From positions 13,561-77,560 of the forward strand of contig JAEUWH010000086.1 in the NCBI GenBank assembly GCA_016785955.1: DNA of 64,000 bases, in the 5' to 3' direction. Shown piece by piece: positions 1 to 15,210 of this stretch. The position numbers and the translations under genes are program-made. How positions within the stretch are numbered: the first letter of the stretch is position 1; each line of letters starts with the position of its first letter. Below the pieces are notes generated by a model. It made no database searches. It was not told the origin of the DNA and saw nothing but the letters and a program-made list of their open reading frames with translations. Source of the stretch: Pseudobdellovibrionaceae bacterium. Lineage in GTDB: Bacteria; Bdellovibrionota; Bdellovibrionia; Bdellovibrionales; Bdellovibrionaceae.

Positions 1-2
1 GC

Positions 3-776
3 GTTGTTCTTTCCGCCCTGCGTGGTATGTCCACAATGGGAATGGACGGAATTCAAATAAAAAAAGTTTTCTACGGCGGCGAGCATATCTATGAAGCCGA
101 CAAAATCGAATTGCGAGAAAAGTTTGGCGTCGAAGTCATCGGCGCACCAGGATACGGCACCGTAGACACCTGGTACATTGGTTATCAATGTTTGCACTCT
201 CCCACCGGAACATTTCATGCTCACGATGACCAGTGCTATATCGAAATTTTCGATGAAGACGAAAACAAACACGTCTCGGGCGAAGGCGTCGGTATGCTGT
301 ACGCCACACCCATGGTTCGTCGTCTGACACCCATTGTGCGCTATCGCGTGGGCGACCGCGCACAATGGCTGGAAACTCCCTGTGAGTGCGGTCGACAAAC
401 GCCTCGATTTCGCTTGCTGGGACGTGGTGATGATGTCCTTCGCATCGGTTATGATTCCGTCGACTATAATTTTATCCAAACCATTGTGGCTCAGTTCAAA
501 GAACTGTCAGGCACAATCCAAATGCAAAAACAACGCGTAGACGGTCGCGATCAATTGGTCATCCTGATTGAAACGGAAAGTAAAAATCATAGTCATCTGG
601 CACAACAAATCGCCGACGAAATTACAAATAACCGTCCCACTTTGCGGGATCATGTGAAAAAACAAACGGTATGGCCGGTTCACGTTCACCTGGTCGCACC
701 ACATACCATCGAGCGCAATGTCCGCACCGGAAAATTGATTCGCGTGAAAGATGCCGTACAGGAAAAGCATAAATAA
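3..776 (+). CDS. PaaK / coenzyme F390 synthetase-like adenylate-forming ligase, C-terminal part (5' end lies outside the window)
   Basis: The frame is open to the window edge. C-terminal ANL/PaaK-type motifs are PIVRYRVGDRA, CECGR, LLGRGDDVLRIG and terminal RTGKLIRVKD. They parallel PLVRYEIGDRA, CPCGS, YLGRDDIFCVG and RSGKIKQVID in ORF 3340..5964. Confidence 0.7.
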   Translation, partial: VVLSALRGMSTMGMDGIQIKKVFYGGEHIYEADKIELREKFGVEVIGAPGYGTVDTWYIGYQCLHSPTGTFHAHDDQCYIEIFDEDENKHVSGEGVGMLYATPMVRRLTPIVRYRVGDRAQWLETPCECGRQTPRFRLLGRGDDVLRIGYDSVDYNFIQTIVAQFKELSGTIQMQKQRVDGRDQLVILIETESKNHSHLAQQIADEITNNRPTLRDHVKKQTVWPVHVHLVAPHTIERNVRTGKLIRVKDAVQEKHK

Positions 777-777
777 T

Positions 778-2217
778 ATGGATAACATGGATAAAAAGCA
801 CGCTCAGTTAAGCATCCCTCCCTGTAGGACATACTTGTCGGCGGCTTCTGATTTTATCGCCATGACCGGTAAAGAAGTCGGCTTGTCAGCCGCCTCTAAC
901 GAAGTGCTTTTTAAATCCTGCCGATTTCTACTGAATGAACTTATGCTGAATTCTGAACGAGGAACCTTCAGCGACTACATTAAAATAGATATTCACAATA
1001 ACACCGATGAACTGAAAGTAGAAATTTTAAATAAAAACCTGCCACTGCCAACCGATTTCGGACAATATGCCCGCACATTGGACCTGCCCAATGTACACAT
1101 TGAAAATTTAGGTCCCGGTGGACAAAAATTAATTTTCAATATGCGATTGGAAAAATCGTACCTATCAGAAAAAGAACCCGCACCGATGGTGACCCCAGAT
1201 ACAAAAATAAATATTCGCCCCCTCAAAGATGGTGAAGAAGCCAAACTCACCGAGCTATTTTTCAACGTCTACGGTTACAACTACATCCATCAATATGTTT
1301 ATTATCCCGAACAAATTAAAGAACGTCGCAAAAACGGCGATTTGATTTGCATCGTCGGCGTCGATGATCACCATAACCTCTTAGGACATGTCGCACTTGT
1401 TCGACTGAATACCAACCCCGTGGTTTACGAAGCGGCGTTAGGCGTTGTCGATCCCCGCATTAAATCCCGTGGTCTATTCACCCAAATATTTGAAAGCACC
1501 ATGGAACACTCCAAAAGCCTGACGATGTCTTACTGCATTTTTGACTTCGTCACCAATCACGATTTCACCCAAAAGCTGGTCTCACGCTATGGCTCCGTAG
1601 ACATGGCTTTATTGATTGGCTGCCAATCCAAAGAAAATCAGGCCAGCTTAGCTCGTCTTGGATTAGGTCAAGACCCGGATGAAATGGATCGTTACAGTTT
1701 ACTGCTATCACTCTCTCCACGCCAAGCTCACCCATTCGGTCAAATGATTTCACTGCCCACTCACATAGGAGAAAACTTCAGCACCGTACTGCAATCCTTG
1801 GGACTTACCTGGCAACCGTCCCCACGGTTTGATCACTTGGGCCGCGACGGCGAATTCTTGGCGCACCGGCAACCCTCGCAAAAAGCAATTATTTTTGATT
1901 TATACAAACCAGGACGGGCGGCACTCCAACGAATGGTGAATGTGTGGCAGCAGCTTGTTCGCGAGGGTTATCAATATGCTGGTGTTAATGTACCCATATC
2001 TGCACCGGGGTTAGCCTATGTTTATGATTTCCTTTCTACAAAAGGTTTTTTTATCGGCGGTTTAATACCGTATCGAAATAGTCACGAATTGGGTTTTCGT
2101 TTTCAAGCTTTAGGTCCCACGCGTGTGGGGTTCGATCAAATCAAAGTTTACACACATACCAGCCAACAACTTCTTCGTGCCGTTAAGGACGATTTTTTAA
2201 GGAATACTTTGATATGA
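778..2217 (+). CDS. GNAT-like acyltransferase family protein with an extra N-terminal domain (loosely SpoIIAB/RsbW-like) and a C-terminal domain of unknown function
   Basis: The ATG lies 1 nt after the upstream stop; an alternative ATG at 751 overlaps it. The central segment INIRPLKDGEE...LLGHVALVRL...VVDPRIKSRGLFTQIF looks GNAT-like. The assignment is by eye only. Confidence 0.5.
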   Translation: MDNMDKKHAQLSIPPCRTYLSAASDFIAMTGKEVGLSAASNEVLFKSCRFLLNELMLNSERGTFSDYIKIDIHNNTDELKVEILNKNLPLPTDFGQYARTLDLPNVHIENLGPGGQKLIFNMRLEKSYLSEKEPAPMVTPDTKINIRPLKDGEEAKLTELFFNVYGYNYIHQYVYYPEQIKERRKNGDLICIVGVDDHHNLLGHVALVRLNTNPVVYEAALGVVDPRIKSRGLFTQIFESTMEHSKSLTMSYCIFDFVTNHDFTQKLVSRYGSVDMALLIGCQSKENQASLARLGLGQDPDEMDRYSLLLSLSPRQAHPFGQMISLPTHIGENFSTVLQSLGLTWQPSPRFDHLGRDGEFLAHRQPSQKAIIFDLYKPGRAALQRMVNVWQQLVREGYQYAGVNVPISAPGLAYVYDFLSTKGFFIGGLIPYRNSHELGFRFQALGPTRVGFDQIKVYTHTSQQLLRAVKDDFLRNTLI

Positions 2218-3338
2218 AAAATCTCTTTCCCGCCAGCGAACAAATAAGTCGAATTAAAAATCCACTGACGTGGACCCAGGAAAAAAACAAGCTCTTTGTG
2301 GAAGCATGCCGGGAAATGGCAGAGTTTCACTTGGCTCAATCCCCGGATATTCAGTCACTTTACGCACAAAAAAAATTTCACCCCTCGCATTTGCAAACCT
2401 TGGAAGATCTTGTGCATCTGCCCTCGATCGGCGTTCAAGCCATGAAATACTTTTTGCTGCTGTCGCAGCCAGAGTCTAAATCCTGTCTGCGCCTGACATC
2501 TTCAGGAACAAATGGACAGAAGACTCAAATATGGTTTGACGAGGGCAGTCTCCAACGTGTTCAAGCTATGCTGGATGGCCTGTGGGACCAATTTGGTTTG
2601 GTCAGCACTCGGCCGACTAACTATTTGATGATGGTCTACGACCCAAAATCGGCTGAAGATTTAGGAATCGCGTTTTCGATTCGCAATCAACAACGATTTG
2701 CTCCCAAGAAATCTGAATTTTTTGCTTTGCAAAAAAACTCGAGTACACAGTGGGAATTTATGATCGATGGCTGCATCGAAACGCTGTTAAAATATTCACA
2801 CGAAGGCTTGCCTGTGCGTATTTGCGGAATCCCCAGTTTTATCCACGATCTCACTGTGGCAATGAAGGCGCCGATTTCTTTGCCTGCGGGCAGCTATATT
2901 TTGACCGGCGGAGGTTGGAAAGCCGCTGAAGGAAAAAAAATCTCGAAAGAACAATTTCGCAAAGAGCTGTCTGAAAAATTGGGAATTCCAGAAGAAAATA
3001 TTCGTGATGGCTATGGAATGGCAGAACATAGCGCTCCGTACATGGAATGCACGCACCACCGATTTCACATCCCCGTGTACAATCGCATCCTCGTACGTGA
3101 TCCCGAAACTATGCACGCATTACCCTGTGGTCGAATCGGTCTATTGGAGCTGATCACACCGTTTAATACCATGATGCCCAACCTATCTGTCTTATCAACC
3201 GACCTAGGCTATATCGATACGGAACCCTGCCCCTGCGGTCTGACCTCGGATACCTTTACGCTCGTAGGACGAGGGGGATTAGTGAAACACAAAGGCTGCG
3301 CTATCACCGCGGCGGAACTTACCAAAAAGGAGACCTAA
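2214..3338 (+). CDS. LuxE-like acyl-protein synthetase (ANL superfamily)
   Basis: ATGA start/stop overlap with the upstream gene. P-loop-like TSSGTNGQKT and GYGMAEHS are present. A near-C-terminal Cys362 (KHKGCAI) sits where LuxE carries its acylated cysteine. The length of 374 aa is LuxE-like. Confidence 0.75.
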   Translation: MKNLFPASEQISRIKNPLTWTQEKNKLFVEACREMAEFHLAQSPDIQSLYAQKKFHPSHLQTLEDLVHLPSIGVQAMKYFLLLSQPESKSCLRLTSSGTNGQKTQIWFDEGSLQRVQAMLDGLWDQFGLVSTRPTNYLMMVYDPKSAEDLGIAFSIRNQQRFAPKKSEFFALQKNSSTQWEFMIDGCIETLLKYSHEGLPVRICGIPSFIHDLTVAMKAPISLPAGSYILTGGGWKAAEGKKISKEQFRKELSEKLGIPEENIRDGYGMAEHSAPYMECTHHRFHIPVYNRILVRDPETMHALPCGRIGLLELITPFNTMMPNLSVLSTDLGYIDTEPCPCGLTSDTFTLVGRGGLVKHKGCAITAAELTKKET

Positions 3339-3339
3339 C

Positions 3340-5964
3340 ATGCGTTATTTTTTTGGTGAATGGAAATCAGCGGATGAAAAACTGACGACAGAAGACATTC
3401 AGCACTTGGTCATGCTTGGTCAGGAACGCGCAAAAGCGATGTCGAAATATCCAATGGATCGCATTTTTTCCGTGCTCGAGCGACTGAGTCGATTGTGGGC
3501 CGATCCCAATTACGAAGGACGCAAACAAGCGCTGGAAATGTTGCCAAAAGAAACTGGTTTTTCTGCCGAGATGACTGCTTTAGCCTTGCATGAACTGCCA
3601 AAATTACTGAACCCACACGCCCTTGAAAAAAAATTAAAAACAGAACTCCGCGGCCTGCCACCCATCGGGGAAGAACATTATCAATTTGAAACTCAAACTG
3701 GGCTTTCGTGGCGCCCCTTGGGATTGGTCGTACACATACTGGCCGGCAACGTGTTCCTTGGCGGTCCCGGTTCTTGGTTGGAAGGACTCGTTACCAAAAA
3801 TGCGAATATTCTTAAAATGTCATCCGGAGAAAAAGTATTTCTACCCTTGTTTATTCGCTCGCTCCAAGAGGTGGATCATGACGGCGTTATTTCACGCGCT
3901 GTCGCACTGATAGACTTTTCATCTTCCGAAGAAAAAATCATTCAAACGTTAAAATCAGCCGCAGACGCCATAGTTGTTTGGGGCGGCGAACAGGCTGTGA
4001 AAGCCTATCAAAAAGATCTGCCACTGCACACCCGCTTGATCGCATTTGGCCCCAAGCTGAGTTTTTCGTTGATCTCCAGAAAGGGCATCTCAACAGCCAC
4101 ACTAGAGACCGTGGCTCAACATCTAGCAGACGATATCAGTATTTGGGATCAAAATGCCTGCACAGCTCCGCAATTGGTATACATAGAGAATGCCGAACTC
4201 GCTGTTCCTTTGGCGCAGGCACTGGGCCGTCACCTTCAAAAAAAAGCAACACTTTTGCCGGCGGGTCCCGCTGATTTGCAAACCGCCGTTGAAATTCGCA
4301 AACTCCGCACGGTCGCCGAGATCGCCGCAGCCCGGGGACACGGTTTTCTAGCCGCTTCAGAAAGAAACTTGGACTACACCGTGACGGTCGATTCGCAAAC
4401 AGCCATCACTGCGTCGCCTTTGCATCGAACAATTCGAATTGTTCCGGTCACAAATTTAGATGTCGTTTATACCGAAATGGAAAAACTAAAAGGGTTTCTA
4501 CAAAGCGTCGGCGTACAGGCTGATCTCAGTGAACATATGTCGATTCACCATCATTTAGCTTACGCCGGAGCCACACGCATTGTAGACATCGGCTCGATGG
4601 CCAACAGCGAAATTGATGATCCTCATGATGGACAATACGACTTATCGCAGTTTGTACATATCATCACCCACCGCTTAAAAAAACCGGATTCGATTGCCTC
4701 AACCGCCGATATTTATGAACCAGCTCATTTCCAGCAGCTACTGGATCAACGATTTCGTCATCTGATTCAACACATTGACTTGAATCAGCACGGTGGTTTT
4801 AGTGAACTCAAAGACAAAATCAACGACATCAGGGACATCGTTCAATTGCCGATAATGCTCAACCAAACTCCTAGCCACATTCCTAAGCAGCTTCATGCTC
4901 CCATCGGGGGCTATGTCACCCGCAGTGGTGGATCCACCGGCGAGCCTAAATATTCTATATACGATGGTGCAGATTGGGAACGTATGATTGCCAGCGCTGT
5001 TCCCGTTTTTCATGCCATGGGCTTACGCCGCGGCGATCGTGTCGCCAACTGTTTTATGGCGGGCGATTTGTATGGCAGCTTTGTATCGTTTGATCACATT
5101 AATGTACGGGTCGGTCTTTTGACATTTGGCTTTGCGGGACACGTTACTCCGGAATTCTTCGCGCAGTCCTATAAAAAAGTAGGATTCAACGTGGTTCAAG
5201 GCGTGCCCGCCAAAATTTTACCACTCCTTCGCCAAGCCAAGCAAATTGTACCCGAATTGAAAATTGAAAAAATCATGTACGCCGGCGCCCCCATGAGTGA
5301 TCGCGATCGCGATTGGTTGAAATCAGAATTAGGTGTATCCCGCATAGGATCGGTCATTGGAGCTAACGATGGCGGGCAATTTGCGTTTCAGTGTTCACAC
5401 CAGTCCGGTCGTTTGCACCACACGATTGACGATTTTAACTATGTAGAAATCGTCAACGATCAAGGTCAGCCTGTTCCTGACGGCGAGCCCGGTCGAATTT
5501 TGATCACCAGTTTGCTCAAATACAATTTCCCATTAGTTCGCTATGAGATCGGAGATCGAGCGCGCATCGTTCCTGGAAAATGCCCATGTGGCAGCCAACG
5601 TCGCGTGGTCGAGTATTTAGGCCGCGATGATATCTTTTGTGTCGGGATGCTGAACTTTTCGTTCGAAGATTGTCGAAAGATTCTGACTCTATTCGAAACC
5701 TCCGATGCACAAATTCATATTAAATCCGTTAACGGTCAAGACCTGTTGATCATCAATGTCGAAAGTACGTCCTCGAACCCAACATTGGCTGCTGATCTGC
5801 GGGCCGCTCTACTTGAAAATATGGGGAAGCTTAAAGAACGATTGAATGAAGGCGCTTTAGATTTGATGGTGAATGTTTTTTCCATCGGTGAAATTACGCG
5901 TGACAAACGTTCAGGAAAAATAAAGCAAGTCATCGATGAACGCATCACTGGAGACGTAAAATGA
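3340..5964 (+). CDS. Fusion protein: N-terminal LuxC-like acyl-CoA/acyl-protein reductase and C-terminal PaaK-like adenylate-forming ligase
   Basis: A GGAG RBS precedes an ATG 1 nt after the luxE-like stop. The N-terminal half has HILAGNVFLGG, NILKMSSGE and WDQNACTAPQ (Cys274, nt 4159-4161), an ALDH/LuxC-type nucleophile context. The C-terminal half has SGGSTGEPK (nt 4924-4950), YEIGDRA, CPCGS and RSGKIKQVIDER. Confidence 0.75.
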   Translation: MRYFFGEWKSADEKLTTEDIQHLVMLGQERAKAMSKYPMDRIFSVLERLSRLWADPNYEGRKQALEMLPKETGFSAEMTALALHELPKLLNPHALEKKLKTELRGLPPIGEEHYQFETQTGLSWRPLGLVVHILAGNVFLGGPGSWLEGLVTKNANILKMSSGEKVFLPLFIRSLQEVDHDGVISRAVALIDFSSSEEKIIQTLKSAADAIVVWGGEQAVKAYQKDLPLHTRLIAFGPKLSFSLISRKGISTATLETVAQHLADDISIWDQNACTAPQLVYIENAELAVPLAQALGRHLQKKATLLPAGPADLQTAVEIRKLRTVAEIAAARGHGFLAASERNLDYTVTVDSQTAITASPLHRTIRIVPVTNLDVVYTEMEKLKGFLQSVGVQADLSEHMSIHHHLAYAGATRIVDIGSMANSEIDDPHDGQYDLSQFVHIITHRLKKPDSIASTADIYEPAHFQQLLDQRFRHLIQHIDLNQHGGFSELKDKINDIRDIVQLPIMLNQTPSHIPKQLHAPIGGYVTRSGGSTGEPKYSIYDGADWERMIASAVPVFHAMGLRRGDRVANCFMAGDLYGSFVSFDHINVRVGLLTFGFAGHVTPEFFAQSYKKVGFNVVQGVPAKILPLLRQAKQIVPELKIEKIMYAGAPMSDRDRDWLKSELGVSRIGSVIGANDGGQFAFQCSHQSGRLHHTIDDFNYVEIVNDQGQPVPDGEPGRILITSLLKYNFPLVRYEIGDRARIVPGKCPCGSQRRVVEYLGRDDIFCVGMLNFSFEDCRKILTLFETSDAQIHIKSVNGQDLLIINVESTSSNPTLAADLRAALLENMGKLKERLNEGALDLMVNVFSIGEITRDKRSGKIKQVIDERITGDVK

Positions 5965-7109
5965 GCTTACATTTCACGTCGCGCGTCGCCACCGAAGCCG
6001 ATGTTTTTGAATTGATGAAAGTTTGGCATTTGGATTCCAACACCCAAAGAGATGAAGATGTATTCATCAATCTTGCCGATTTTAGAAAATCATTGAATGA
6101 CCCTCAAACGTTTTGGTTATTGTTGATTAACGAGGGCCAGATTGACGGTTTTGTGTGGGCTTTGATTGATTCCGACCAAAAGCTGGCCAAGGTCAAACGT
6201 GCGTGCGTGAAACAAGATGTCTCTGGTGGTCGCGATCAGAGGATTTTTTGGCTTGTTCAAGAATTGGTGCAAGCTCTGAAAAAACACATGCCCACTTTGG
6301 AAGTCTTGTACACAACCATGCGTCCATTGGCATACCAAACGGATGTCTTGCGCGACTTAGGATTTCGTGTTTTGGGAATTTTTCCTAATGGAAAAGAAAT
6401 CGACAGTTCCCTGGTGAATTCACTGGAAACCTATTTTTATGATAATGTGCTAGAAAAAAATCGTCCGGCGGAACTGACTCTACATCCACTTTTAATGCCT
6501 TTGTACGACATTGTCCGGCAAGAATGTATATTACCGAAAGTCACCGAGTATCAAGGTGATCTTTCGACCATTCGGGAATTTGAAGTTCTTCCTAAGCTAG
6601 ATATCCTGAAAGCGCCCAGTTTTGTCGCCCACCGATTTGAAAAATTGCGCAGCCGTCAGTCTTTGTCTTCACAATTTTATCCGTTTCATGCACCAAATGC
6701 ATTGATCACCGATTTGAACCAATCCATCGAAGTCTTTGTAAAAATATTTACAGAAACATCCATGGCCACAATCGTGGGCGAAAGACTCGAACTTGGGGTC
6801 AATCCGATTGATCTTTATAAAAATGTCGCTCGCATTCTGCGCGAACATGGTATCTTGTACGTTGAAATGATTAACGATGCCGCTGATGCCTTAGGTACAG
6901 AAGCCTTGATTCAAGCTGGTTATTTGCCCTGTGCCTACTTCCCCGCATTGAAAAAACAAAACAATGTCCGTCGTGACTATGTCGTTTTCGCCCGCTCGTT
7001 TGAAAATTTCTTTTACCCCGATTTGGGAAACATTGCTCCGGTATACCGTCAGTATTTAAAACAATACTATGAATATGAAAAACTAGTTTTCCACCGATTT
7101 ATTAAGTAG
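5961..7109 (+). CDS. GNAT-like protein with a C-terminal domain resembling that of ORF 778..2217
   Basis: ATGA overlap with the upstream stop. The N-terminus (RVATEADVFELMKVW...VKQDVSGGRDQRIFWLVQELVQ) is acetyltransferase-like. The C-terminal pattern HGILYVEMIND...LIQAGYLPCAYFP echoes EGYQYAGVNVP...LSTKGFFIGGLIP of ORF 778..2217. Confidence 0.45.
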   Translation: MSLHFTSRVATEADVFELMKVWHLDSNTQRDEDVFINLADFRKSLNDPQTFWLLLINEGQIDGFVWALIDSDQKLAKVKRACVKQDVSGGRDQRIFWLVQELVQALKKHMPTLEVLYTTMRPLAYQTDVLRDLGFRVLGIFPNGKEIDSSLVNSLETYFYDNVLEKNRPAELTLHPLLMPLYDIVRQECILPKVTEYQGDLSTIREFEVLPKLDILKAPSFVAHRFEKLRSRQSLSSQFYPFHAPNALITDLNQSIEVFVKIFTETSMATIVGERLELGVNPIDLYKNVARILREHGILYVEMINDAADALGTEALIQAGYLPCAYFPALKKQNNVRRDYVVFARSFENFFYPDLGNIAPVYRQYLKQYYEYEKLVFHRFIK

Positions 7110-7121
7110 GCAGCAACAGTA

Positions 7122-8336
7122 TCAATGTTGATTTGATGCCTGTAGCGCCTTGCGAACAAGAATCAGTGACAACGCCGAAATGGCCGCCGCTAAGTAGTAG
7201 GGAGCTCCCAAAAAAAAGCTATTGGGCTGGTTGACGCCCCAATTGAACGTGTGCGTGTAAATGACCGGAGCCAAGATCGAGGTCACACTAGCGACGGAAA
7301 CCAGTCCTCCTTGCAACTCCCCTTGGTAATGGGCATCTACCTTCTTGGTCATCAGTGATTGAAGGCACGGCATCGATAAGCCTTGAAGTGCCGATAACAC
7401 CATGATCGCGTAGACCATCCATCCGTCAGGCGCCAAGCCATACAGCAAAAACCCCACAGCATTAAAGAAAATACCGATGATCAGAGACTTATGTTCTCCC
7501 CAGAGGGGTACTAGTTTTTTAGTAAAAATAGACTGACTCATTCCATAAATCAATCCCACAAAGCTCAACGAGACGCCCACCTGAATGGAATTCCAATCAA
7601 ATTTTTCCTCGGTATATAAAGTCCATATACTAGGATGAGAGTTACCGGCCAAGAAAAGAAGTGCGTAGGTACACACGAATATCGCCATGCCGGGAATTTT
7701 CAATGTGTTCATAATGGTCGTGAATGGATTTAATTTTCTAATTTGAATGACCCGGCGATTTTCTGGTTTCAATGACTCGGGTAATATAAAAATTCCAAAC
7801 AGGAAATTTAAAATATTTAAAACGGCCGCCCCGATAAATGGCATTTGCGGTCCAAAGTGTCCTAACAAACCACCCATAATCGGCCCAGCAATAAAACCGA
7901 TGCCAAATGCAGCCCCGACTAAACCAAAATTGGCCGATCGATTTGAATCATCCGAAATATCCGCGATATAAGAGTTCGCCACGGTCATACTGGCGCCAGT
8001 TAATCCCGAAACCACACGCCCAATAAATAACAAAGGCAACGTTGGTGCAAACGCCATAAAAATATAATCAAGCCCTGCCCCCAATAGTGATCCAAGTAAT
8101 ATCGGTCGCCGTCCATATTGATCGGAAAGACCACCTAAAATAGGCGAGGCTACAAATTGCATGATGGCATAGGTCGCAATAAAGTAGCCAAATAACTCGG
8201 AAACTTCGCCGGGGTCTGTGACAAATCTCCTAATCACGTCTGGCAATACCGGCATGATCAATCCGATACCGATCATATCTAAGACAATAGTAGCAAAAAT
8301 AAAGTATATGGCTTTTTTACTGCGGGGTGAATTCAT
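7122..8336 (-). CDS. MFS transporter, TetA/TCR-like 12-TM drug:H+ antiporter family
   Basis: Motif A GGLSDQYGRRPILL. The N-terminus IYFIFATIVLDMIGIGLIMPVLPD is typical of the TetA-class family. The protein is hydrophobic throughout. Confidence 0.85.
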   Translation of the reverse strand: MNSPRSKKAIYFIFATIVLDMIGIGLIMPVLPDVIRRFVTDPGEVSELFGYFIATYAIMQFVASPILGGLSDQYGRRPILLGSLLGAGLDYIFMAFAPTLPLLFIGRVVSGLTGASMTVANSYIADISDDSNRSANFGLVGAAFGIGFIAGPIMGGLLGHFGPQMPFIGAAVLNILNFLFGIFILPESLKPENRRVIQIRKLNPFTTIMNTLKIPGMAIFVCTYALLFLAGNSHPSIWTLYTEEKFDWNSIQVGVSLSFVGLIYGMSQSIFTKKLVPLWGEHKSLIIGIFFNAVGFLLYGLAPDGWMVYAIMVLSALQGLSMPCLQSLMTKKVDAHYQGELQGGLVSVASVTSILAPVIYTHTFNWGVNQPNSFFLGAPYYLAAAISALSLILVRKALQASNQH

Positions 8337-8386
8337 TCAACAAGTATTTCTTATACAGGCACAGAGATCAAGTAAATCGACCTATA

Positions 8387-8414
8387 GGTAATGACCAGAT
8401 AAGTTGGTAATGAC
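8387..8414 (+). repeat. Two direct copies of GGTAATGAC (8387-8395 and 8406-8414); the second is embedded in GTTGGTAATGACA
   Basis: Read directly from the sequence. It lies between the motB stop (8417) and the MFS start (8336). The same core recurs at 16725..16738 (reverse orientation) and 39880..39893. Confidence 0.8.
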
Positions 8415-8416
8415 AG

Positions 8417-9406
8417 TTACTGGTTCTGTTCTGGATTCATTTTCTTTTCTTCTTCTACTGCTGGTACTTTACCAGGTACTTTGCTTTGTACTTTCTGTGG
8501 TACTGGTAATTTACCTGGTTTGGCAGCACTTGCCTTCTTCTTTTGCGATGCCAATTGATTTACAAAGTTATCGTAAACATTCATTGAATCATTAGAGGGG
8601 CCAAATGCTGTTTCAAGCTTTCTTTGTGGTTGTCCATTTGATTTAAATTCTTTCTGTTTGATAGAGATACGTAAAAATCCAATTTTCTTTTCCGAAGCGG
8701 GGTCGCCTTTGGTGTTCACAACACTTGTATTCCCATTAATGTCTACCGACGTGCTTTCTAAGCTGGCTTTTATTTTATTGGAAACCAGATCCAATCGTTC
8801 TTGAGCAATATTTAATGCGCTCTTTTCTTTGGCATCAGGCAGGGTTCCTGTAGTCACCACTGATTTCAATTCAACATTCGCATCCTCTAATCCAGTCGTA
8901 ATGCCTTTTATTTTGTCCATAACCTCGATAAAACGAGCGGCGGGAATAGCGCCACCTTTTTCAAATAGAATATTTTCTGGAATATCGAATTCAAAACCGG
9001 TCTGATCTATTTTCACATTCTGCGCATCTTCGGCCAAGGAATCCGCCAAAAATCCCACAACGACACTGGCCGAACCCATGTCTAACAAATTGGGAGTCTT
9101 ATCAATTGGTTCCATGAACGATTCAAACGCTTTCATTGGCTCATTGACTAGATCCAAAAATAATTTTTCTATTGTAATCGTCGCGCCGTAGTTTTTAAAA
9201 TTGTACTCAATAATGGACGGGGTAGAAAAGTAATCTGAAATGGCTTTCTTGGTTTCTTCGGACTGTCCCAAAAGCCACATGACCAGGAAGAACGCCATCA
9301 TCGCTGTCATGAAATCTGCGAGCGCCACTTTCCATGAACCACCATGGTGGCCGGCTCCGGCCACGATGACTTTCTTGATAACGATCATTGGTTTTTCTTT
9401 TGCCAT
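8417..9406 (-). CDS. motB: Flagellar motor stator protein MotB-like
   Basis: The N-terminus HHGGSWKVALADFMTAMMAFFLVMWLL is the MotB TM/plug signature. A divergent OmpA-like C-terminus is present (LFEKGGAIP...NIAQERLDLV). AAGGA RBS. Confidence 0.85.
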   Translation of the reverse strand: MAKEKPMIVIKKVIVAGAGHHGGSWKVALADFMTAMMAFFLVMWLLGQSEETKKAISDYFSTPSIIEYNFKNYGATITIEKLFLDLVNEPMKAFESFMEPIDKTPNLLDMGSASVVVGFLADSLAEDAQNVKIDQTGFEFDIPENILFEKGGAIPAARFIEVMDKIKGITTGLEDANVELKSVVTTGTLPDAKEKSALNIAQERLDLVSNKIKASLESTSVDINGNTSVVNTKGDPASEKKIGFLRISIKQKEFKSNGQPQRKLETAFGPSNDSMNVYDNFVNQLASQKKKASAAKPGKLPVPQKVQSKVPGKVPAVEEEKKMNPEQNQ

Positions 9407-9438
9407 GAAATCCTTCTACCCAACTACCTAGTCCGCTA

Positions 9439-10305
9439 TTAGGCTGCTTTCTTAATATCTTTTGTTGCTTTGTCCATTTCTTCGAATGTCGGTCTTTCCT
9501 CGGGCATGATTGAACGTCGAGCAAACTCCACACACACAAGTGGTGGCGCACCTCTTTGTAAACTGATCATAGCCGCTTTGATACAACCCAAATAACGACC
9601 TTCCGCTTCAATATCTGCTGCCATTTTACTGGCAACGGGACCAATCATACCGTACGCACCGAAAACCCCAAGCATCGTTCCTACCAGGGCGTTACCAATT
9701 AACCGACCGATGACTTCCGTCCCTTCCGTTAAATGTCCCATGGTCTTAACGATCCCCAAAACCGCCGCAACGATCCCCAGACCTGGAAAACCATCGGCCG
9801 CAGATTGAACCGCATGCTGAGCCATGTGTTCTTCGGCATGGATAGCTTTGATATCACCATCCAATAAATCGTCCACATCATAAGGGGACAACTCTGCGGA
9901 CAATGTAATCTTCATCGTGTCACACAAAAAATGTACAGCGTGATGATTTTTCATAAAATTGGGGTAAGCTTTGAAAATATCACTTTTCGAAGGGTCCTCG
10001 ATATGCTTCTCGATTCCTTGAGGTCCTTCTTTACGAAAAACTTGAAAAATTTGAAATAGTAACTGAAGTAATTCTAAATAGTCTTTTTTCTGAGGTCCTT
10101 TTGCGGTCATCGCGTGGATCGCAAGTTTAAAACCAGCTTTAATTGTCTTCATTGGGTTCGCAATGATATATGCACCCAGAGCGGCACCCCCGATGATCAT
10201 TAACTCTAACGGAGCGGCACTAATAATGACGCTTAAATGTCCACCGGCTAAAATGAAACCGCCGAACACCATGACGAAAACGACTATGACACCTACAAAT
10301 CCCAT
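9439..10305 (-). CDS. motA: Flagellar motor stator protein MotA
   Basis: 288 aa with a 4-TM MotA/TolQ/ExbB-type layout, GFPGLGIVAAVLGIV and GALVGTMLGV. It is adjacent to motB. GAGG RBS. Confidence 0.9.
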   Translation of the reverse strand: MGFVGVIVVFVMVFGGFILAGGHLSVIISAAPLELMIIGGAALGAYIIANPMKTIKAGFKLAIHAMTAKGPQKKDYLELLQLLFQIFQVFRKEGPQGIEKHIEDPSKSDIFKAYPNFMKNHHAVHFLCDTMKITLSAELSPYDVDDLLDGDIKAIHAEEHMAQHAVQSAADGFPGLGIVAAVLGIVKTMGHLTEGTEVIGRLIGNALVGTMLGVFGAYGMIGPVASKMAADIEAEGRYLGCIKAAMISLQRGAPPLVCVEFARRSIMPEERPTFEEMDKATKDIKKAA

Positions 10306-10430
10306 GCTTTACCTCAACGTTTTGATCGGTGGGTGCTGTAAAAAATTGAGACCAGCCTAGGAACTTTGATTTTTCCGGACCTTAGTCATATTAGGATCAA
10401 CATTTAATAAATCTACCGATAAGATAGGGA

Positions 10431-12230
10431 ATGTTTAAAAGTGGACTATTAACCTTATCACTATTTCTAGCTAGCCCTTCGTTCAGCTTCACAGATCAAC
10501 TCGGTAAATCCAAGGCGGCCGAACAAACGACCGATCCTTTGGAGGTACGTGTTTCTTCATCGCCCGAGATGATGATTCCTAAAAATGAATACACGTTGCA
10601 ACTAAGCCTACAGTTACCAAATACATTTCACGCCTATGAAGACCAATTCAAGATCGTTTTCTTAGAGCCCTCGGGATTGAATGTCAAAAGCATAGCCCTG
10701 ACGCCACTCAAAAGATGGTTTGATAAATTCTCTAAAAAGGAACGCTCGGGAGTTGGCGGGTCTTCAACAATGACATTGATTATAGAAACACCAGATCGCT
10801 TTGTGGATGAAAAAGACAAGCTTGTTTTTGAGTTTACATATCAAGCCTGCTCAGATACCTACTGTCTGTTTCCAAAAAGCAAAGACGTCACCGTACCAAT
10901 GAAATTCGAAAATATTTTGAATTCATCCCCACCATTTCTGACGGAAATGCCAAAAGGCAAGGCGCTTTTCACAACCGAAGGCTTTACCTATTTTCTAGGA
11001 CAAAGCTGGTGGCTAGCACTGATATTAGCATTTTTAGCTGGCATCATTACCAGTTTTACACCCTGTATTTTCCCAATGATTCCTATCACGCTCGCAATTT
11101 TGAACAATCATTCAGAGCAACGCACTCGATTGACCAATTTTTTAATCAGCGTCGTTTATGTTCTAGGAATCGCAACGACTTATTCAACTTTAGGTCTTGT
11201 CGCCGCAAAATCCGGTATGCTGTTTGGCTCGCTATTGTCTAATCCATATGTATTAACATTCATTTGCAGTTTGTTTTTTTTGATGGCGTTATCGATGTAC
11301 GGTGTGTTCGAATTACACATGCCAAATTTTATTACGCAACGGTTTGGCAAAGGCAGTAAACACAAAGGATACCTCGGAGCTTTTCTATCCGGCCTATTTG
11401 CCGGTATCGTGGCCAGTCCCTGCGTAGGCCCAGTGCTTGTTTCTATTTTGACTTTTGTATCTACTCGGCAAAGTGTTCTTTTTGGTTTTTTCTTGTTGTT
11501 TACTTATGCTTTGGGATTGGGGTTAATTTTTATCCTGCTCGGTTCATCTACGGAACTGACTAAAAAACTACCACGCTCGGGACCATGGTTAGAGACCACA
11601 AAATTTATTCTGGGCTCGTTAATGTTAGTAGGTTTCTTTTACTACTTTGACTTACTTGTCACTCCATTCATTTTCCAAGTCGTTCTTGGACTGATTCTTG
11701 TGGTCTTAGCGTCGCTGCAAGGAGCGTTTACCAAGCCCTCACAAAAGAAACTTGTACTGGTACGCAAAGGCTTCATGCAGGCCGTGCTGGTATTAGGCTT
11801 TACGCTGATTGTTTCTGGTGTGTATCGACAGTTTTTTAGCCCGAACCAACTGTCTTCATACCGAGACGTGCAATTCAACAAGAGTCAAATTTGGACCCCC
11901 TATTCCGACACCGCTCTTGCCCAAGCGCAGACGGACAAAAAACCGGTCATCATTGATTTCTTTGCTGAATGGTGCGAAGCCTGCCTACAACTCGAGGAAT
12001 TTGTATTTTCCACTCCCGAATTCAAAGACCAGACTCAAAATATGCGGCTATTAAAATTCGATGCTACTAAAAATTCTCCACAATTAGATAGCCTGCGAAA
12101 GAAATACGGAATTGTTGGTCTACCTTCAATTCTATTTATTGACTCAAATGGAAACTGGATCAAAGCTAAAACTTTGACGGAATTTGAAAAAAAAGAAGCA
12201 TTTTTTAAACGTATTGAAGATTTGAAATAG
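10431..12230 (+). CDS. dsbD: Thiol:disulfide interchange protein DsbD (DipZ)
   Basis: Signal peptide. An alpha domain with YQACSDTYCLFP. A CcdA-like core with FTPCIFPMIP and ASPCVGPVL. A C-terminal thioredoxin domain with FFAEWCEAC. Confidence 0.9.
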   Translation: MFKSGLLTLSLFLASPSFSFTDQLGKSKAAEQTTDPLEVRVSSSPEMMIPKNEYTLQLSLQLPNTFHAYEDQFKIVFLEPSGLNVKSIALTPLKRWFDKFSKKERSGVGGSSTMTLIIETPDRFVDEKDKLVFEFTYQACSDTYCLFPKSKDVTVPMKFENILNSSPPFLTEMPKGKALFTTEGFTYFLGQSWWLALILAFLAGIITSFTPCIFPMIPITLAILNNHSEQRTRLTNFLISVVYVLGIATTYSTLGLVAAKSGMLFGSLLSNPYVLTFICSLFFLMALSMYGVFELHMPNFITQRFGKGSKHKGYLGAFLSGLFAGIVASPCVGPVLVSILTFVSTRQSVLFGFFLLFTYALGLGLIFILLGSSTELTKKLPRSGPWLETTKFILGSLMLVGFFYYFDLLVTPFIFQVVLGLILVVLASLQGAFTKPSQKKLVLVRKGFMQAVLVLGFTLIVSGVYRQFFSPNQLSSYRDVQFNKSQIWTPYSDTALAQAQTDKKPVIIDFFAEWCEACLQLEEFVFSTPEFKDQTQNMRLLKFDATKNSPQLDSLRKKYGIVGLPSILFIDSNGNWIKAKTLTEFEKKEAFFKRIEDLK

Positions 12231-12305: not shown

Positions 12306-13595
12306 TTAAGGCTGAAAGAATAATTTAATTTTCCCGCTGCTATTTTCGAGTTGCAAAAATGGGATCATATTCGTGGACTTGATCAATTCGGTATCTAACA
12401 CAAAATAGTCTGGAATAAATCGTACGTAGCGATAGAACCGGCTGACATCTTGAAACTCGGTACGCTGAGTTTTGATTCGCGACTGGGTGGTTTTATAGAA
12501 GTTAAGGCCACTATTATAGATTTCCGTTCCTGCAATCAAACCAATCGCGATAATTTGTCCAATAGCTTCACCACTTCCCGATATCTGCGAGGCCAAATAT
12601 ATACCTCCACCTACAATGCCGACGCCGACGGCTATTCCTGTCACGAGCACGACTCCCGTCGCCGCACTTGTCAAAAAATTCAACGATTGAAATTCTAGCT
12701 CGCTAACAAACATACGAGACATGTATTTTGAGCTTTGAATAGTTTCCTTAAAAGCTTCGTTACGCGCCAAGTTTTCGGTGTGCCATGATTTTGACGAGAA
12801 CACAAATTTTTTAGATTTCTCTAAATCAGGTACGTCAACATCTTTCGATGGCACTTCAGATTTGAATTCCAAGGCATGAAACCCAACACCTTGCAAGGCC
12901 GCTAATTTATCATCCGTAGTCGCCACCACTCCCGTACCTTTGAATAAAACTTCCCAGTTCAATGGTTTATTTTCGTATCGATTTGCGTCTACGAAACCTC
13001 CCATGGCTTGAGCTTTGCGAAGATCCACGATCGCATTCTCTTTCTCGCCACACAAACTCCACAGCACCGCTGATAAAATACGAACTCCGGCATTATCGTA
13101 AAAAGGTTTTCCGTTCATCCCGACTCGTGCAAACAGTTCGGATATACGTTTTGCTTCAACCCGGGCTTCATTCATTTTATTTTTCTTGATAAATGTCAGA
13201 CCCAACACAAAATGCATCCAAAAAATTTCGTGATTTCCGGGATAATAACCTTCATCCGTTTTGATAAATAGAAGCTGCGAAAGTTCGTTGGTGATGGATG
13301 TCATTTCGTTTTGCTCAATTTGACGAGACTCGCGTAGTAACTGAGTAAACTCAGCAGTGTCTTTGGAGTCTTTTGTGATGGTATTGGCATCATCGATTAG
13401 CTGTAAATATACCTTTTCTACCAAAGGAATAAAATGATTCGCCTCTTTTTTAGGAAAATGTTGCAAGGCCAATGCGGGACTTTCCATTTTTAAGGACGCA
13501 ACGGCCGGGATATATTCCTTTTTCTCGATAATTTGCCCGGTGGTGCAACCTACCAGAATCGAACCTATGACAAAAATTAAGCCAAAGGAAAACAT
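12306..13595 (-). CDS. Putative lipoprotein with a C-terminal glycine-zipper membrane segment
   Basis: Lipobox ILVGC. The C-terminal segment is GVVLVTGIAVGVGIVGGGIYLASQISGSGEAIGQIIAIGLIAG. No family recognised. Confidence 0.6.
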   Translation of the reverse strand: MFSFGLIFVIGSILVGCTTGQIIEKKEYIPAVASLKMESPALALQHFPKKEANHFIPLVEKVYLQLIDDANTITKDSKDTAEFTQLLRESRQIEQNEMTSITNELSQLLFIKTDEGYYPGNHEIFWMHFVLGLTFIKKNKMNEARVEAKRISELFARVGMNGKPFYDNAGVRILSAVLWSLCGEKENAIVDLRKAQAMGGFVDANRYENKPLNWEVLFKGTGVVATTDDKLAALQGVGFHALEFKSEVPSKDVDVPDLEKSKKFVFSSKSWHTENLARNEAFKETIQSSKYMSRMFVSELEFQSLNFLTSAATGVVLVTGIAVGVGIVGGGIYLASQISGSGEAIGQIIAIGLIAGTEIYNSGLNFYKTTQSRIKTQRTEFQDVSRFYRYVRFIPDYFVLDTELIKSTNMIPFLQLENSSGKIKLFFQP

Positions 13596-13598
13596 TTA

Positions 13599-14096
13599 CT
13601 ATAAGCGCTTTAGTCGTGCGATTTCAGCTTTGAGTTCTTTTAATGTGGTAACAGCTTCGACATAATCTTGCTCTTTCTGAAGCAGCAATTTTTGCATTTG
13701 ATTCAAGCGCACTTCGTAACCTTTCAAAAGATTATTGTGGCGATCAACAATATCTTGAACTTTTTGATCGTATTTTTTTTGCTCGTTCAACTTTTGCAGC
13801 AATAGAGCGAATTTATCGGCAATATCGGTTGCCATTTGATTCTGTTGATTTTCCAACCTTTGCAGCGATTGGTTATAACGATCGGTACGCAATTTTGAAT
13901 TTTTTTGAATTTCCAAAATTTCCATTTTTAAATCATTAATTTCGGGACCTTGATGAGGGGATGGAATCGCCGCTGTTTCAGCCACGACCTGTTCTTGAGC
14001 GAAATTCCAATTTGCAGGTGGCGTTTGACTAAACGCCGGCTTTTGAGCTGCGGCTGCATTCATATCAAAAAAATTGTAGTTTAATTCTTTTTTCAC
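13599..14096 (-). CDS. Coiled-coil protein, function unknown
   Basis: I prefer the GTG at 14096 because GGGAGG lies 4 nt upstream. The ORF-track TTG at 14114 and the ATG at 14063 are alternatives. Heptad-rich sequence. The stop lies 3 nt from the downstream lipoprotein start. Confidence 0.55.
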   Translation of the reverse strand: MKKELNYNFFDMNAAAAQKPAFSQTPPANWNFAQEQVVAETAAIPSPHQGPEINDLKMEILEIQKNSKLRTDRYNQSLQRLENQQNQMATDIADKFALLLQKLNEQKKYDQKVQDIVDRHNNLLKGYEVRLNQMQKLLLQKEQDYVEAVTTLKELKAEIARLKRL

Positions 14097-14226
14097 TCGG
14101 CCTCCCTCAACCAATTATTAACCCGCGCACAACCGATTAGTCACCTTTTTAATACATCGTTTTAACTACTAAGCATTGTAGAAGAATCTGCTAGACTAAT
14201 CACCAAAAAATTCTTATTTTATTTTT

Positions 14227-15210
14227 ATGTTGAAAGTTGCCTATTTGAACAAATTTTTGACCGAGATAAATCCACATACATCGCCAACGCGTTTGGCTTT
14301 GTACAACTACCTCAAAGCCTTTCACTCTCCTGAAGAGGAATTAACAAACGATTTAATCAACGAATTTTTCTACCAATGCCTTGAATACTCACACTGGTAT
14401 TCAAATCGCGGCCACTTTAGTCATGAATTACAAATCTTGTTGAAAAACTTTAACGACTTTTATCAAAATCATTTCGATCTTTCTCAGATTATATTTCCTG
14501 ATCAGATCCAGATCATCGAGGTTGAATCACCAAGATCTGTGGAAGAGGCATTGAGCCGATATATCAAAGCTCGCTATCTGAAAGAGGTAAAGTTTAAGCT
14601 GTTTACTGAACAAAAGAAGTGGGTCGCCTTTATTCTAAAAGATGGTAGTGGCATTGATGTTCTACAATTTGATCGTAAATTCACTATTCGCAATGGAAAT
14701 CTTGAGCCTTTGCGTACGCAATTGAAAATTTCGTTTGATTCATCAATGGAAATTGACTCTCAGTTTATCCATTCCATCGAAGTCAGCCCTCATCATCTGG
14801 TACGATTTACGATGAAAAATGGCCTGATTTCTGGCGTCCTTACCCGAGGATATATGTTCCAAAAATCTCAGGATATCCAAAATGCCAAACTTCATGATGT
14901 CCCAAAGCTGTTCTGGCCGGTTAAGCGTATCGAGCAGTTCTTTGTGTCGAGAGGCACCGATCCGTTCTATTGCGATATCGTAAAGAAACTAGAGGACATT
15001 ACCTTGGGCTTCTGGGAAAAAAATTCAGAATCTTGGCAAAACTATATTACTATTTTACTCTCTCAATCTGAATCCGCTCTGGAAAACGTGTATATAGGTG
15101 ACAAAAGGCTCGAAGACTTGATAAGAAAAGTCCGTCACTTACTAGTAACGGAAAAGAGCGAGCCATGGCAGCAGAGAAATCAAGCAAAACCCCTACAACG
15201 GGATCTATAA
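14227..15210 (+). CDS. Hypothetical cytoplasmic protein
   Basis: Long ORF with an ATG start and coding-like composition. No recognisable motif. Confidence 0.6.
   Translation: MLKVAYLNKFLTEINPHTSPTRLALYNYLKAFHSPEEELTNDLINEFFYQCLEYSHWYSNRGHFSHELQILLKNFNDFYQNHFDLSQIIFPDQIQIIEVESPRSVEEALSRYIKARYLKEVKFKLFTEQKKWVAFILKDGSGIDVLQFDRKFTIRNGNLEPLRTQLKISFDSSMEIDSQFIHSIEVSPHHLVRFTMKNGLISGVLTRGYMFQKSQDIQNAKLHDVPKLFWPVKRIEQFFVSRGTDPFYCDIVKKLEDITLGFWEKNSESWQNYITILLSQSESALENVYIGDKRLEDLIRKVRHLLVTEKSEPWQQRNQAKPLQRDL

Follow-up and report, generated by a model that had tools for sequence, protein, structure and literature searches.

The five-gene cassette at positions 3-7109 of the DNA stretch analysed here (64,000 nt of contig JAEUWH010000086.1 from a Pseudobdellovibrionaceae bacterium, referred to below as the window) is probably a divergent and enlarged member of the leupeptin (leup) type of pathway, which makes peptide aldehydes independently of non-ribosomal peptide synthetases (NRPSs). 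By analogy with that pathway, the cassette likely makes an N-acyl peptide aldehyde for export, which agrees with the aldehyde and/or N-acylated compound guessed in an earlier note made from the letters of this DNA. The same note had called the operon a candidate undescribed acyl-activation and reduction system. This claim fails on the note's own terms, because the same gene set has already been assigned to leupeptin biosynthesis and each Leup protein has a significant homologue in the window. What is new is the divergent branch, with its extra parts and its host range, and the kind of system was already known.

The cassette consists of five tightly coupled open reading frames (ORFs), here named A to E, all on the forward strand, and the region carries the NCBI locus tags JNL11_13810 to 13825 (exact protein matches):

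3..776 (+): gene A, C-terminal part of a PaaK-like ligase; ORF open at the window edge
787..2217, alternative ATG at 778 (+): gene B, GHKL-like::tandem GNAT protein, 476 aa; from profile and structure prediction
2214..3338 (+): gene C, LuxE-family ligase, 374 aa; Pfam LuxE
3340..5964 (+): gene D, LuxC::PaaK-like fusion, 874 aa; Pfam LuxC and AMP-binding
5961..7109 (+): gene E, second tandem GNAT protein, 382 aa; from profile and structure prediction

The coordinates and junctions confirm the earlier description of five same-strand genes that are translationally coupled by a 1-nt spacer or ATGA overlaps. The TAA of A ends at 776 and is followed by ATG codons at 778 and 787, of which the NCBI model of B takes 787; B and C share an ATGA at 2214-2217, as D and E do at 5961-5964, and the TAA of C ends at 3338, with a single nucleotide (3339) before the ATG of D. 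The operon also begins outside the window, as had been suggested: A is open at the edge, its relatives have ~446-448 residues, and the first ~190 residues lie beyond the window. Promoter and terminator scans of positions 1-10500 stayed at chance level and did not reveal the operon boundaries, and no Rfam RNA family was found in the window.

Homology to the leupeptin pathway

The leup pathway is NRPS-independent and makes small N-acyl peptide aldehydes that inhibit proteases; it is found in Klebsiella oxytoca/michiganensis, Photorhabdus and Xenorhabdus, and leupeptin itself we take to be Ac/Pr-Leu-Leu-argininal. A reference leup locus (L050) was recovered from metagenome contigs via the published leupA primer. 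According to the passages that cite Li et al. 2020 (Angew Chem 59:17872) in PMC11212599, PMC8283571 and bioRxiv 10.64898/2026.08.25.747093, leupeptin biosynthesis depends on leupABCD and a transporter, and the component list in the passage from the last of these names a LuxE-family ligase, a LuxC::AMP-binding fusion, a PaaK-family ligase, a GNAT and an MFS transporter. L050 contains exact matches to the two published primers at a distance of 1235 bp, its leupABCD genes occupy ~5.8 kb, and the transporter is located upstream. The corresponding passage of PMC8283571 gives 1235 bp and 5.8 kb, and the exact primers at this distance together with the span verify L050 as a genuine leup locus. Its proteins are as follows:

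LeupA: 378 aa; Pfam LuxE
LeupB: 801 aa; Pfam LuxC and AMP-binding
LeupC: 446 aa; Pfam AMP-binding and AMP-binding_C_2
LeupD: 305 aa; GNAT (Pfam)

Pairwise BLASTP comparison of the window proteins with the Leup proteins gave these matches (identity, E value):

C and LeupA: 35% over 369 aa, 1e-77
D and LeupB: 28% over 818 aa, covering both domains, 2e-71
A, full-length Pendulispora orthologue, and LeupC: 33% over 452 aa, 6e-39
A, window fragment, and LeupC: 30% over 246 aa, 8e-21
B residues 141-276 and LeupD residues 2-136: 27%, 2e-13

Cys362 of C aligns with Cys367 of LeupA. Only the first GNAT half of B is homologous to LeupD, and the extra domains of B have no LeupD equivalent; E gave no significant BLASTP match to LeupD.

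The two gene sets thus share a ligase of the LuxE family that has a Cys near its C-terminus, a LuxC::ANL fusion reductase, a free-standing PaaK-type ligase and a GNAT, with an MFS pump present in leup and in relatives of the window cassette; the sub-order LuxE then LuxC::ANL is common to both, and neither relies on NRPSs. The differences are nevertheless considerable. Identity is just 27-35%, the LeupD-like GNAT of the window branch is a tandem GNAT with a GHKL-like N-terminal domain, and the additional tandem GNAT E has no counterpart in Klebsiella leupABCD. The exporter is of the MFS_3 family in relatives of the window cassette and of the MFS_1 family in leup, most of these relatives carry an upstream gene for a secreted Cys-His-Asp protein, and the branch occurs in Bdellovibrionota, Elusimicrobiota, Riflebacteria and Myxococcota instead of Gammaproteobacteria.

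Leup-like genes were also seen on a conjugative IncF plasmid of Salmonella enterica (CP053580, L056, 7989-12866), where homologues of leupA/B/C encode proteins 66-73% identical to those of Klebsiella and have insertion sequence and recombinase genes close by; no leupD is among the genes listed for 12866-15079 in a gene table that is incomplete.

Enzyme families, catalytic residues and the GNAT proteins

The window holds the C-terminal 257 residues of A, a stand-alone PaaK-like (ANL) ligase that matches Pfam AMP-binding_C_2 (3.4e-6) and NCBIfam PaaK (2.9e-20). Protein C matches Pfam LuxE with an E value of 1.7e-34 and has the P-loop TSSGTNGQKT; when aligned to the PDB chain 7xc6_E, its K236, R353 and C362 correspond to K238, R355 and C364 of LuxE, and all three are at least 95% conserved (48 sequences). 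In LuxE, adenylation, thioesterification and acyl transfer have been assigned to the K238/R355 pair and C364. Protein D joins an N-terminal LuxC-type thioester reductase that carries Cys274 (residues 36-439, nt ~3445-4656) to a C-terminal PaaK-like ligase with the P-loop SGGSTGEPK and the ANL catalytic Lys860 (residues ~492-868, nt ~4813-5943). It matches Pfam LuxC (4.1e-86), Pfam AMP-binding and NCBIfam PaaK/AMP-binding families (1e-16 to 1e-22), and in the PDB it matches LuxC (7xc6_A, 2.5e-26) and PaaK (4r1l, 1.9e-28). Cys274 lies in WDQNACTAPQ, which aligns with YDQQACFSTQ of Photobacterium phosphoreum LuxC (the 7XC6 chain, solved by cryo-electron microscopy); this motif contains the catalytic Cys296 of that enzyme. 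Across 120 sequences, LeupB among them, conservation of C274, the P-loop and K860 of D is at least 97%, and taken with the residues and the P-loop of C, the range for the family is at least 95-97%. The LuxE and LuxC domain calls of the earlier note are therefore upheld by significant hidden Markov model matches, its two active-site cysteines fall on LuxC Cys296 and LuxE Cys364, and it was right in counting three adenylate-forming modules (A, C and the PaaK-like half of D).

These Pfam matches and conserved cysteines are what would be expected if C and D formed a Lux-type fatty acid reductase whose fatty aldehyde would go into lipids, waxes or signalling, with the other genes as accessories. 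The LuxC-LuxE complex of 7XC6 indeed shares equal folds and catalytic residues with C and D, as well as the presumed course from adenylation through a Cys-to-Cys relay to reduction by NADPH. However, when canonical LuxC and LuxE were scored from a luxCDE construct, C reached 86 bits to LuxE (26% identity) and D 100 bits to LuxC, compared with 234 and 240 bits to the Leup proteins, so that by bit score the window proteins are 2-3 times closer to Leup. Identity to the 7XC6 pair is 25-26%, with a score far below that of Leup, the window LuxC domain is fused to an ANL ligase, and the substrate in the window system would be a peptide acid instead of myristate. The supply of a fatty aldehyde would also leave the obligatory link to two additional ligases, GNATs and an exporter unexplained. 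The earlier note had seen no luxA/B/D-like gene in the window. This stands for luxD, since tblastn found no LuxD homologue in the window or in ~60 related loci; for luxA/B, no direct sequence search was made, and no luciferase-like family recurs in the flanks of more than 40 loci. The pattern of scores led us to reject fatty aldehyde supply of the Lux type, which we consider very unlikely. A bare pair of LuxE-like and unfused LuxC-like genes was also noted on a Chloroflexota plasmid (CP069395, L058, 8971-11372), adjoining a heliorhodopsin gene; its LuxE is nearer to LeupA (38%) and window C (32%) than to canonical LuxE.

The GNAT proteins B and E have no match in Pfam or NCBIfam, and their assignment comes from profiles and predicted structures. 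The AlphaFold2 model of B (predicted local distance difference test, pLDDT, 91) has Foldseek GNAT matches at 1e-7; residues ~140-476 form a tandem GNAT fold, and residues 1-125 form an RsbW/SpoIIAB-like GHKL domain (RsbW in Foldseek, template modelling score 0.85), while the profile of the B family matches anti-sigma F with an E value of 0.013. More distant relatives of ~500 residues match Pfam HATPase_c_2 and Acetyltransf_1, which confirms the GHKL plus GNAT architecture of B. For E, the family profile matches the PDB GNAT 2i79 (E value 0.002), and the AlphaFold2 model (pLDDT 88) has Foldseek GNAT matches at 1e-8 and aligns over its full length with the tandem GNATs 2wpx and 9emp. The two GNAT-like proteins of the earlier note are thus both tandem GNATs by AlphaFold and Foldseek; what it had missed is the N-terminal RsbW/SpoIIAB-like domain of B. 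We rejected B and E as recent paralogues because the hhalign probability is just 54%, and they appear to be only remotely related to each other.

The resemblance of the B N-terminal domain to anti-sigma factor kinases raises the alternative that the operon is a protein-modification or regulatory module, in which B would modify proteins as a partner-switching kinase or acetyltransferase and a protein substrate would be tagged by the ligases. A large, uncharacterised family with an RsbW-like HATPase_c_2 domain and tandem GNATs does exist (417 representatives at E<1e-10), and could be taken in favour of this. However, in the alignment of the B profile to SpoIIAB, the N-box Asn is replaced by Leu, DEGVG by NRGxP, and the lid segment is deleted; the fold is retained, and conservation is lacking at the N-box Asn, the G1 Asp and the ATP lid/G2 box. 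For this reason, we rejected B as an active GHKL kinase, and its N-terminal domain is probably not a kinase. In addition, the loci have no recurrent gene for RsbV/STAS or a sigma factor, and conservation of the exporter points to a small molecule that is secreted, so that we regard a regulatory module as highly improbable. The members of the ~500-residue family (proteins P0276-P0379 among them) are only 22-30% identical to B.

Related cassettes and their distribution

Using the B family as a marker in a search of 185,579 species-representative genomes, we found 44 loci in Bdellovibrionota (including Bacteriovoracaceae and Oligoflexales), Elusimicrobiota and Riflebacteria, and the cassette is also present in Pendulispora brunnea, a myxobacterium in culture (CP089982, ~7.68-7.69 Mb, near LZC95_30115). 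In many genomes, the LuxC::PaaK fusion co-occurs with the B family, and the order A-B-C-D-(MFS_3)-E is kept across four phyla in ~35 of the 44 loci. The closest relative (L060), in which D is 74% identical, has the arrangement gene0-A-B-C-D-MFS_3-E, and the MFS_3 gene lies between D and E in ~30 loci, including this one (L060:12227-13444). Such conservation of an exporter with the cassette is expected of a secreted small molecule.

Gene0 adjoins the cassette in 32 loci, mostly directly 5' of A (e.g. L060:4750-5763 (+) and L006:7756-8637; within L004-L047), and is absent from the 64 kb of the window. It encodes a protein of ~300-350 residues with a signal peptide and invariant Cys98, His139 and Asp155 in the motifs GFCFGR, WRFH and AIDP. 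The match of this protein to the papain-like family PF18626 is weak and below threshold, and its profile found no match in the PDB. One possibility is that it acts as a secreted partner of the pathway, either a peptidase or a transglutaminase-like protein, and that it processes the pathway product or is its target. In an Elusimicrobiota single-cell genome (L042:3-8441 (+)), a gene0-like segment lies 5' of A inside a 2812-residue ORF, which could reflect a fusion or an incorrectly joined frame.

A plasmid of Streptomyces sp. NBC_00158 (NZ_CP108162; L057, 5245-12686 and 13416-14783) carries a cassette in the order PaaK-MFS_3-GNAT-LuxE-LuxC::PaaK, which appears to link the leup and window branches. 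Like the window branch, the Streptomyces/Kitasatospora cassette has the PaaK ligase first and LuxE then LuxC::PaaK last, and its MFS_3 exporter is 34% identical to that of the window family. The 390-residue Streptomyces GNAT aligns with window E at 23-24% over ~380 aa (E value 5e-18; 4.6e-12 in the reverse search). On the other side, it has a single GNAT and lacks a B-like GHKL::GNAT protein, and its ligases and reductase share 40-53% identity with Leup, more than the 28-36% with the window proteins. Proteins C and D score 234-298 bits to the Leup and Streptomyces proteins taken together. Judged by these alignments, the window cassette appears to be a third branch, and a deeper one, of a single type of pathway, and the window branch appears to be unique in combining the LeupD-like GNAT with the Streptomyces-type GNAT. 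The Streptomyces plasmid cassette adjoins three tandem genes annotated as 'peptidase inhibitor family I36', and its reductase is annotated with the Gene Ontology term 'bioluminescence', a misleading label.

A reduced arrangement was seen in Elusimicrobia metagenome-assembled genomes (L015:1328-6200, L033, L034 and L035), which have an MFS gene (650-685 aa), A and B only. Unrelated genes follow downstream (a type II secretion system ATPase, a phosphoenolpyruvate-utilising enzyme and an M3 peptidase), and no C, D or E was found within 10 kb. It is possible that these loci are a stand-alone N-acyl-dipeptide module.

Proposed route, exporter and neighbouring genes

The domains, catalytic residues, Leup homology and synteny described above were computed, and the order of reactions proposed here follows from analogy and anatomy. 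Synthesis would start with the LeupD-like GNAT half of B, which would N-acylate the first amino acid from an acyl-coenzyme A; the PaaK-like ligase A would then adenylate the N-acyl amino acid and couple a second amino acid, and the PaaK-like half of D would add the third residue. The MFS-A-B loci of Elusimicrobia fit the role of A and B as a first, self-sufficient module of acylation and ligation. Subsequently, the LuxE-like protein C would adenylate the peptide acid and load it as a thioester on its own Cys362. A conserved Cys tail occurs in C only and not in the PaaK domains, so C is likely the relay partner of the LuxC domain; the acyl group would move to Cys274 of D, and NADPH would release the peptide aldehyde. 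Export may be carried out by an MFS pump, which would be the in-operon MFS_3 in the relatives and perhaps the neighbouring MFS_1 in the window genome. Protein E might add or alter an acyl group, perform a second acylation, or detoxify an intermediate in self-protection, and the GHKL-like N-terminal domain of B is most likely a docking or regulatory module, its ATP-binding residues being lost.

Three adenylating units, one reductase and one N-acyltransferase are exactly what an N-acyl tripeptide aldehyde would need, and the best characterised match of every core protein is in the leup pathway. Both points speak against the alternative that the same enzyme logic acts on non-peptide acids, in which an aryl or fatty acid and an amine would give an N-acyl amino aldehyde, an amino-alcohol lipid or an ester-linked product. 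This alternative has some evidence of its own. PaaK-family ligases such as NatL2, AjiA1 and BagE form esters and amides, and the ligase domains of the cassette also match PaaK, FlxY and BagE/FevW, with the PaaK-like ligases AjiA1 and 6siw as further PDB matches. Identity to Leup is low enough that substrate specificity is not predictable, and the two tandem GNATs with the extra domain suggest chemistry beyond leupeptin. Taken together, we consider a non-peptide substrate unlikely.

Several observations weigh against assignment to the leup type, or at least limit how far it can be carried. With 27-35% identity to Leup, substrate specificity cannot be inferred, and the product need not be leupeptin, nor a tripeptide. 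Protein A resembles the ANL half of LeupB and LeupC to about the same degree, so that its designation as the LeupC orthologue is based on architecture, and which ligase performs which step is not readable from the sequence. Gene order also differs, being PaaK-GNAT-LuxE-LuxC::PaaK-(MFS_3)-GNAT2 in the window branch and MFS-LuxE-LuxC::ANL-PaaK-GNAT in leup. Neither E nor the N-terminal domain of B has a leupABCD counterpart, and the roles given to both are guesses. The steps were assigned from secondary citations together with what is generally known of LuxC/LuxE and ANL enzymology, and the branch is known from its genes alone. Finally, the window operon itself contains no MFS_3 gene, and D overlaps E directly. 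Because L060 keeps MFS_3 between these two genes, we conclude that the window genome has apparently lost the in-operon gene, and cleanly; the same loss was seen in two metagenome-assembled genomes of Bdellovibrionia (L019 and L021).

A more specific form of the leup-type assignment, which we put forward tentatively and rate as somewhat short of probable, is that the cassette defines a separate, phylum-spanning branch (Bdellovibrionota, Elusimicrobiota, Riflebacteria and Pendulispora) that makes a new, doubly GNAT-tailored peptide aldehyde and not leupeptin. In this branch, the pseudo-kinase docking domain would organise synthesis, and the dedicated secreted Cys-His-Asp enzyme would process the product or be controlled by it. 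If this is true, the peptide aldehyde and the Cys-His-Asp enzyme might serve predation or protection from the proteases of prey or host. Peptide aldehydes of the leupeptin type are in wide use as protease inhibitors, and they act as factors in bacterial colonisation and signalling. To our knowledge, the NRPS-independent route to peptide aldehydes has so far been described in a few Gammaproteobacteria only, and our literature search found no link of leupeptin-type clusters to Bdellovibrio, Elusimicrobia or Pendulispora. The cassette appears to represent a deeper, enlarged branch of the pathway that is conserved in predatory and uncultured lineages as well as in the culturable Pendulispora brunnea. 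It is a genome-mining target for new protease inhibitors, and its stand-alone amide ligases may be useful in biocatalysis. The leup-type assignment also corrects the database labels 'bioluminescence', 'phenylacetate-CoA ligase' and 'hypothetical protein' for the cassette genes.

Downstream of E, the window contains a candidate exporter:

7122..8336 (-): MFS_1 transporter, convergent, 12 nt 3' of E; Pfam MFS_1 1.8e-50

No homologue of this gene adjoins the cassette in other loci, and the relatives carry the unrelated MFS_3, for which reasons we rejected it as the conserved exporter of the family; it is a possible exporter in the window genome. Further downstream are housekeeping genes for a MotB-like protein (8417-9406 (-)), a MotA-like protein (9439-10305 (-)) and a DsbD-type thiol:disulfide interchange protein (10431-12230 (+)), and none of the three recurs near the cassette in other genomes. 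Far from the cassette, positions 57738-59948 (-) encode a secreted protein of 736 residues with no Pfam hit, with long (G-L-G-G)n repeats and Q-rich segments, which accounts for two local features at 58-60 kb, a rise in GC content (0.49) and a strongly negative GC skew.

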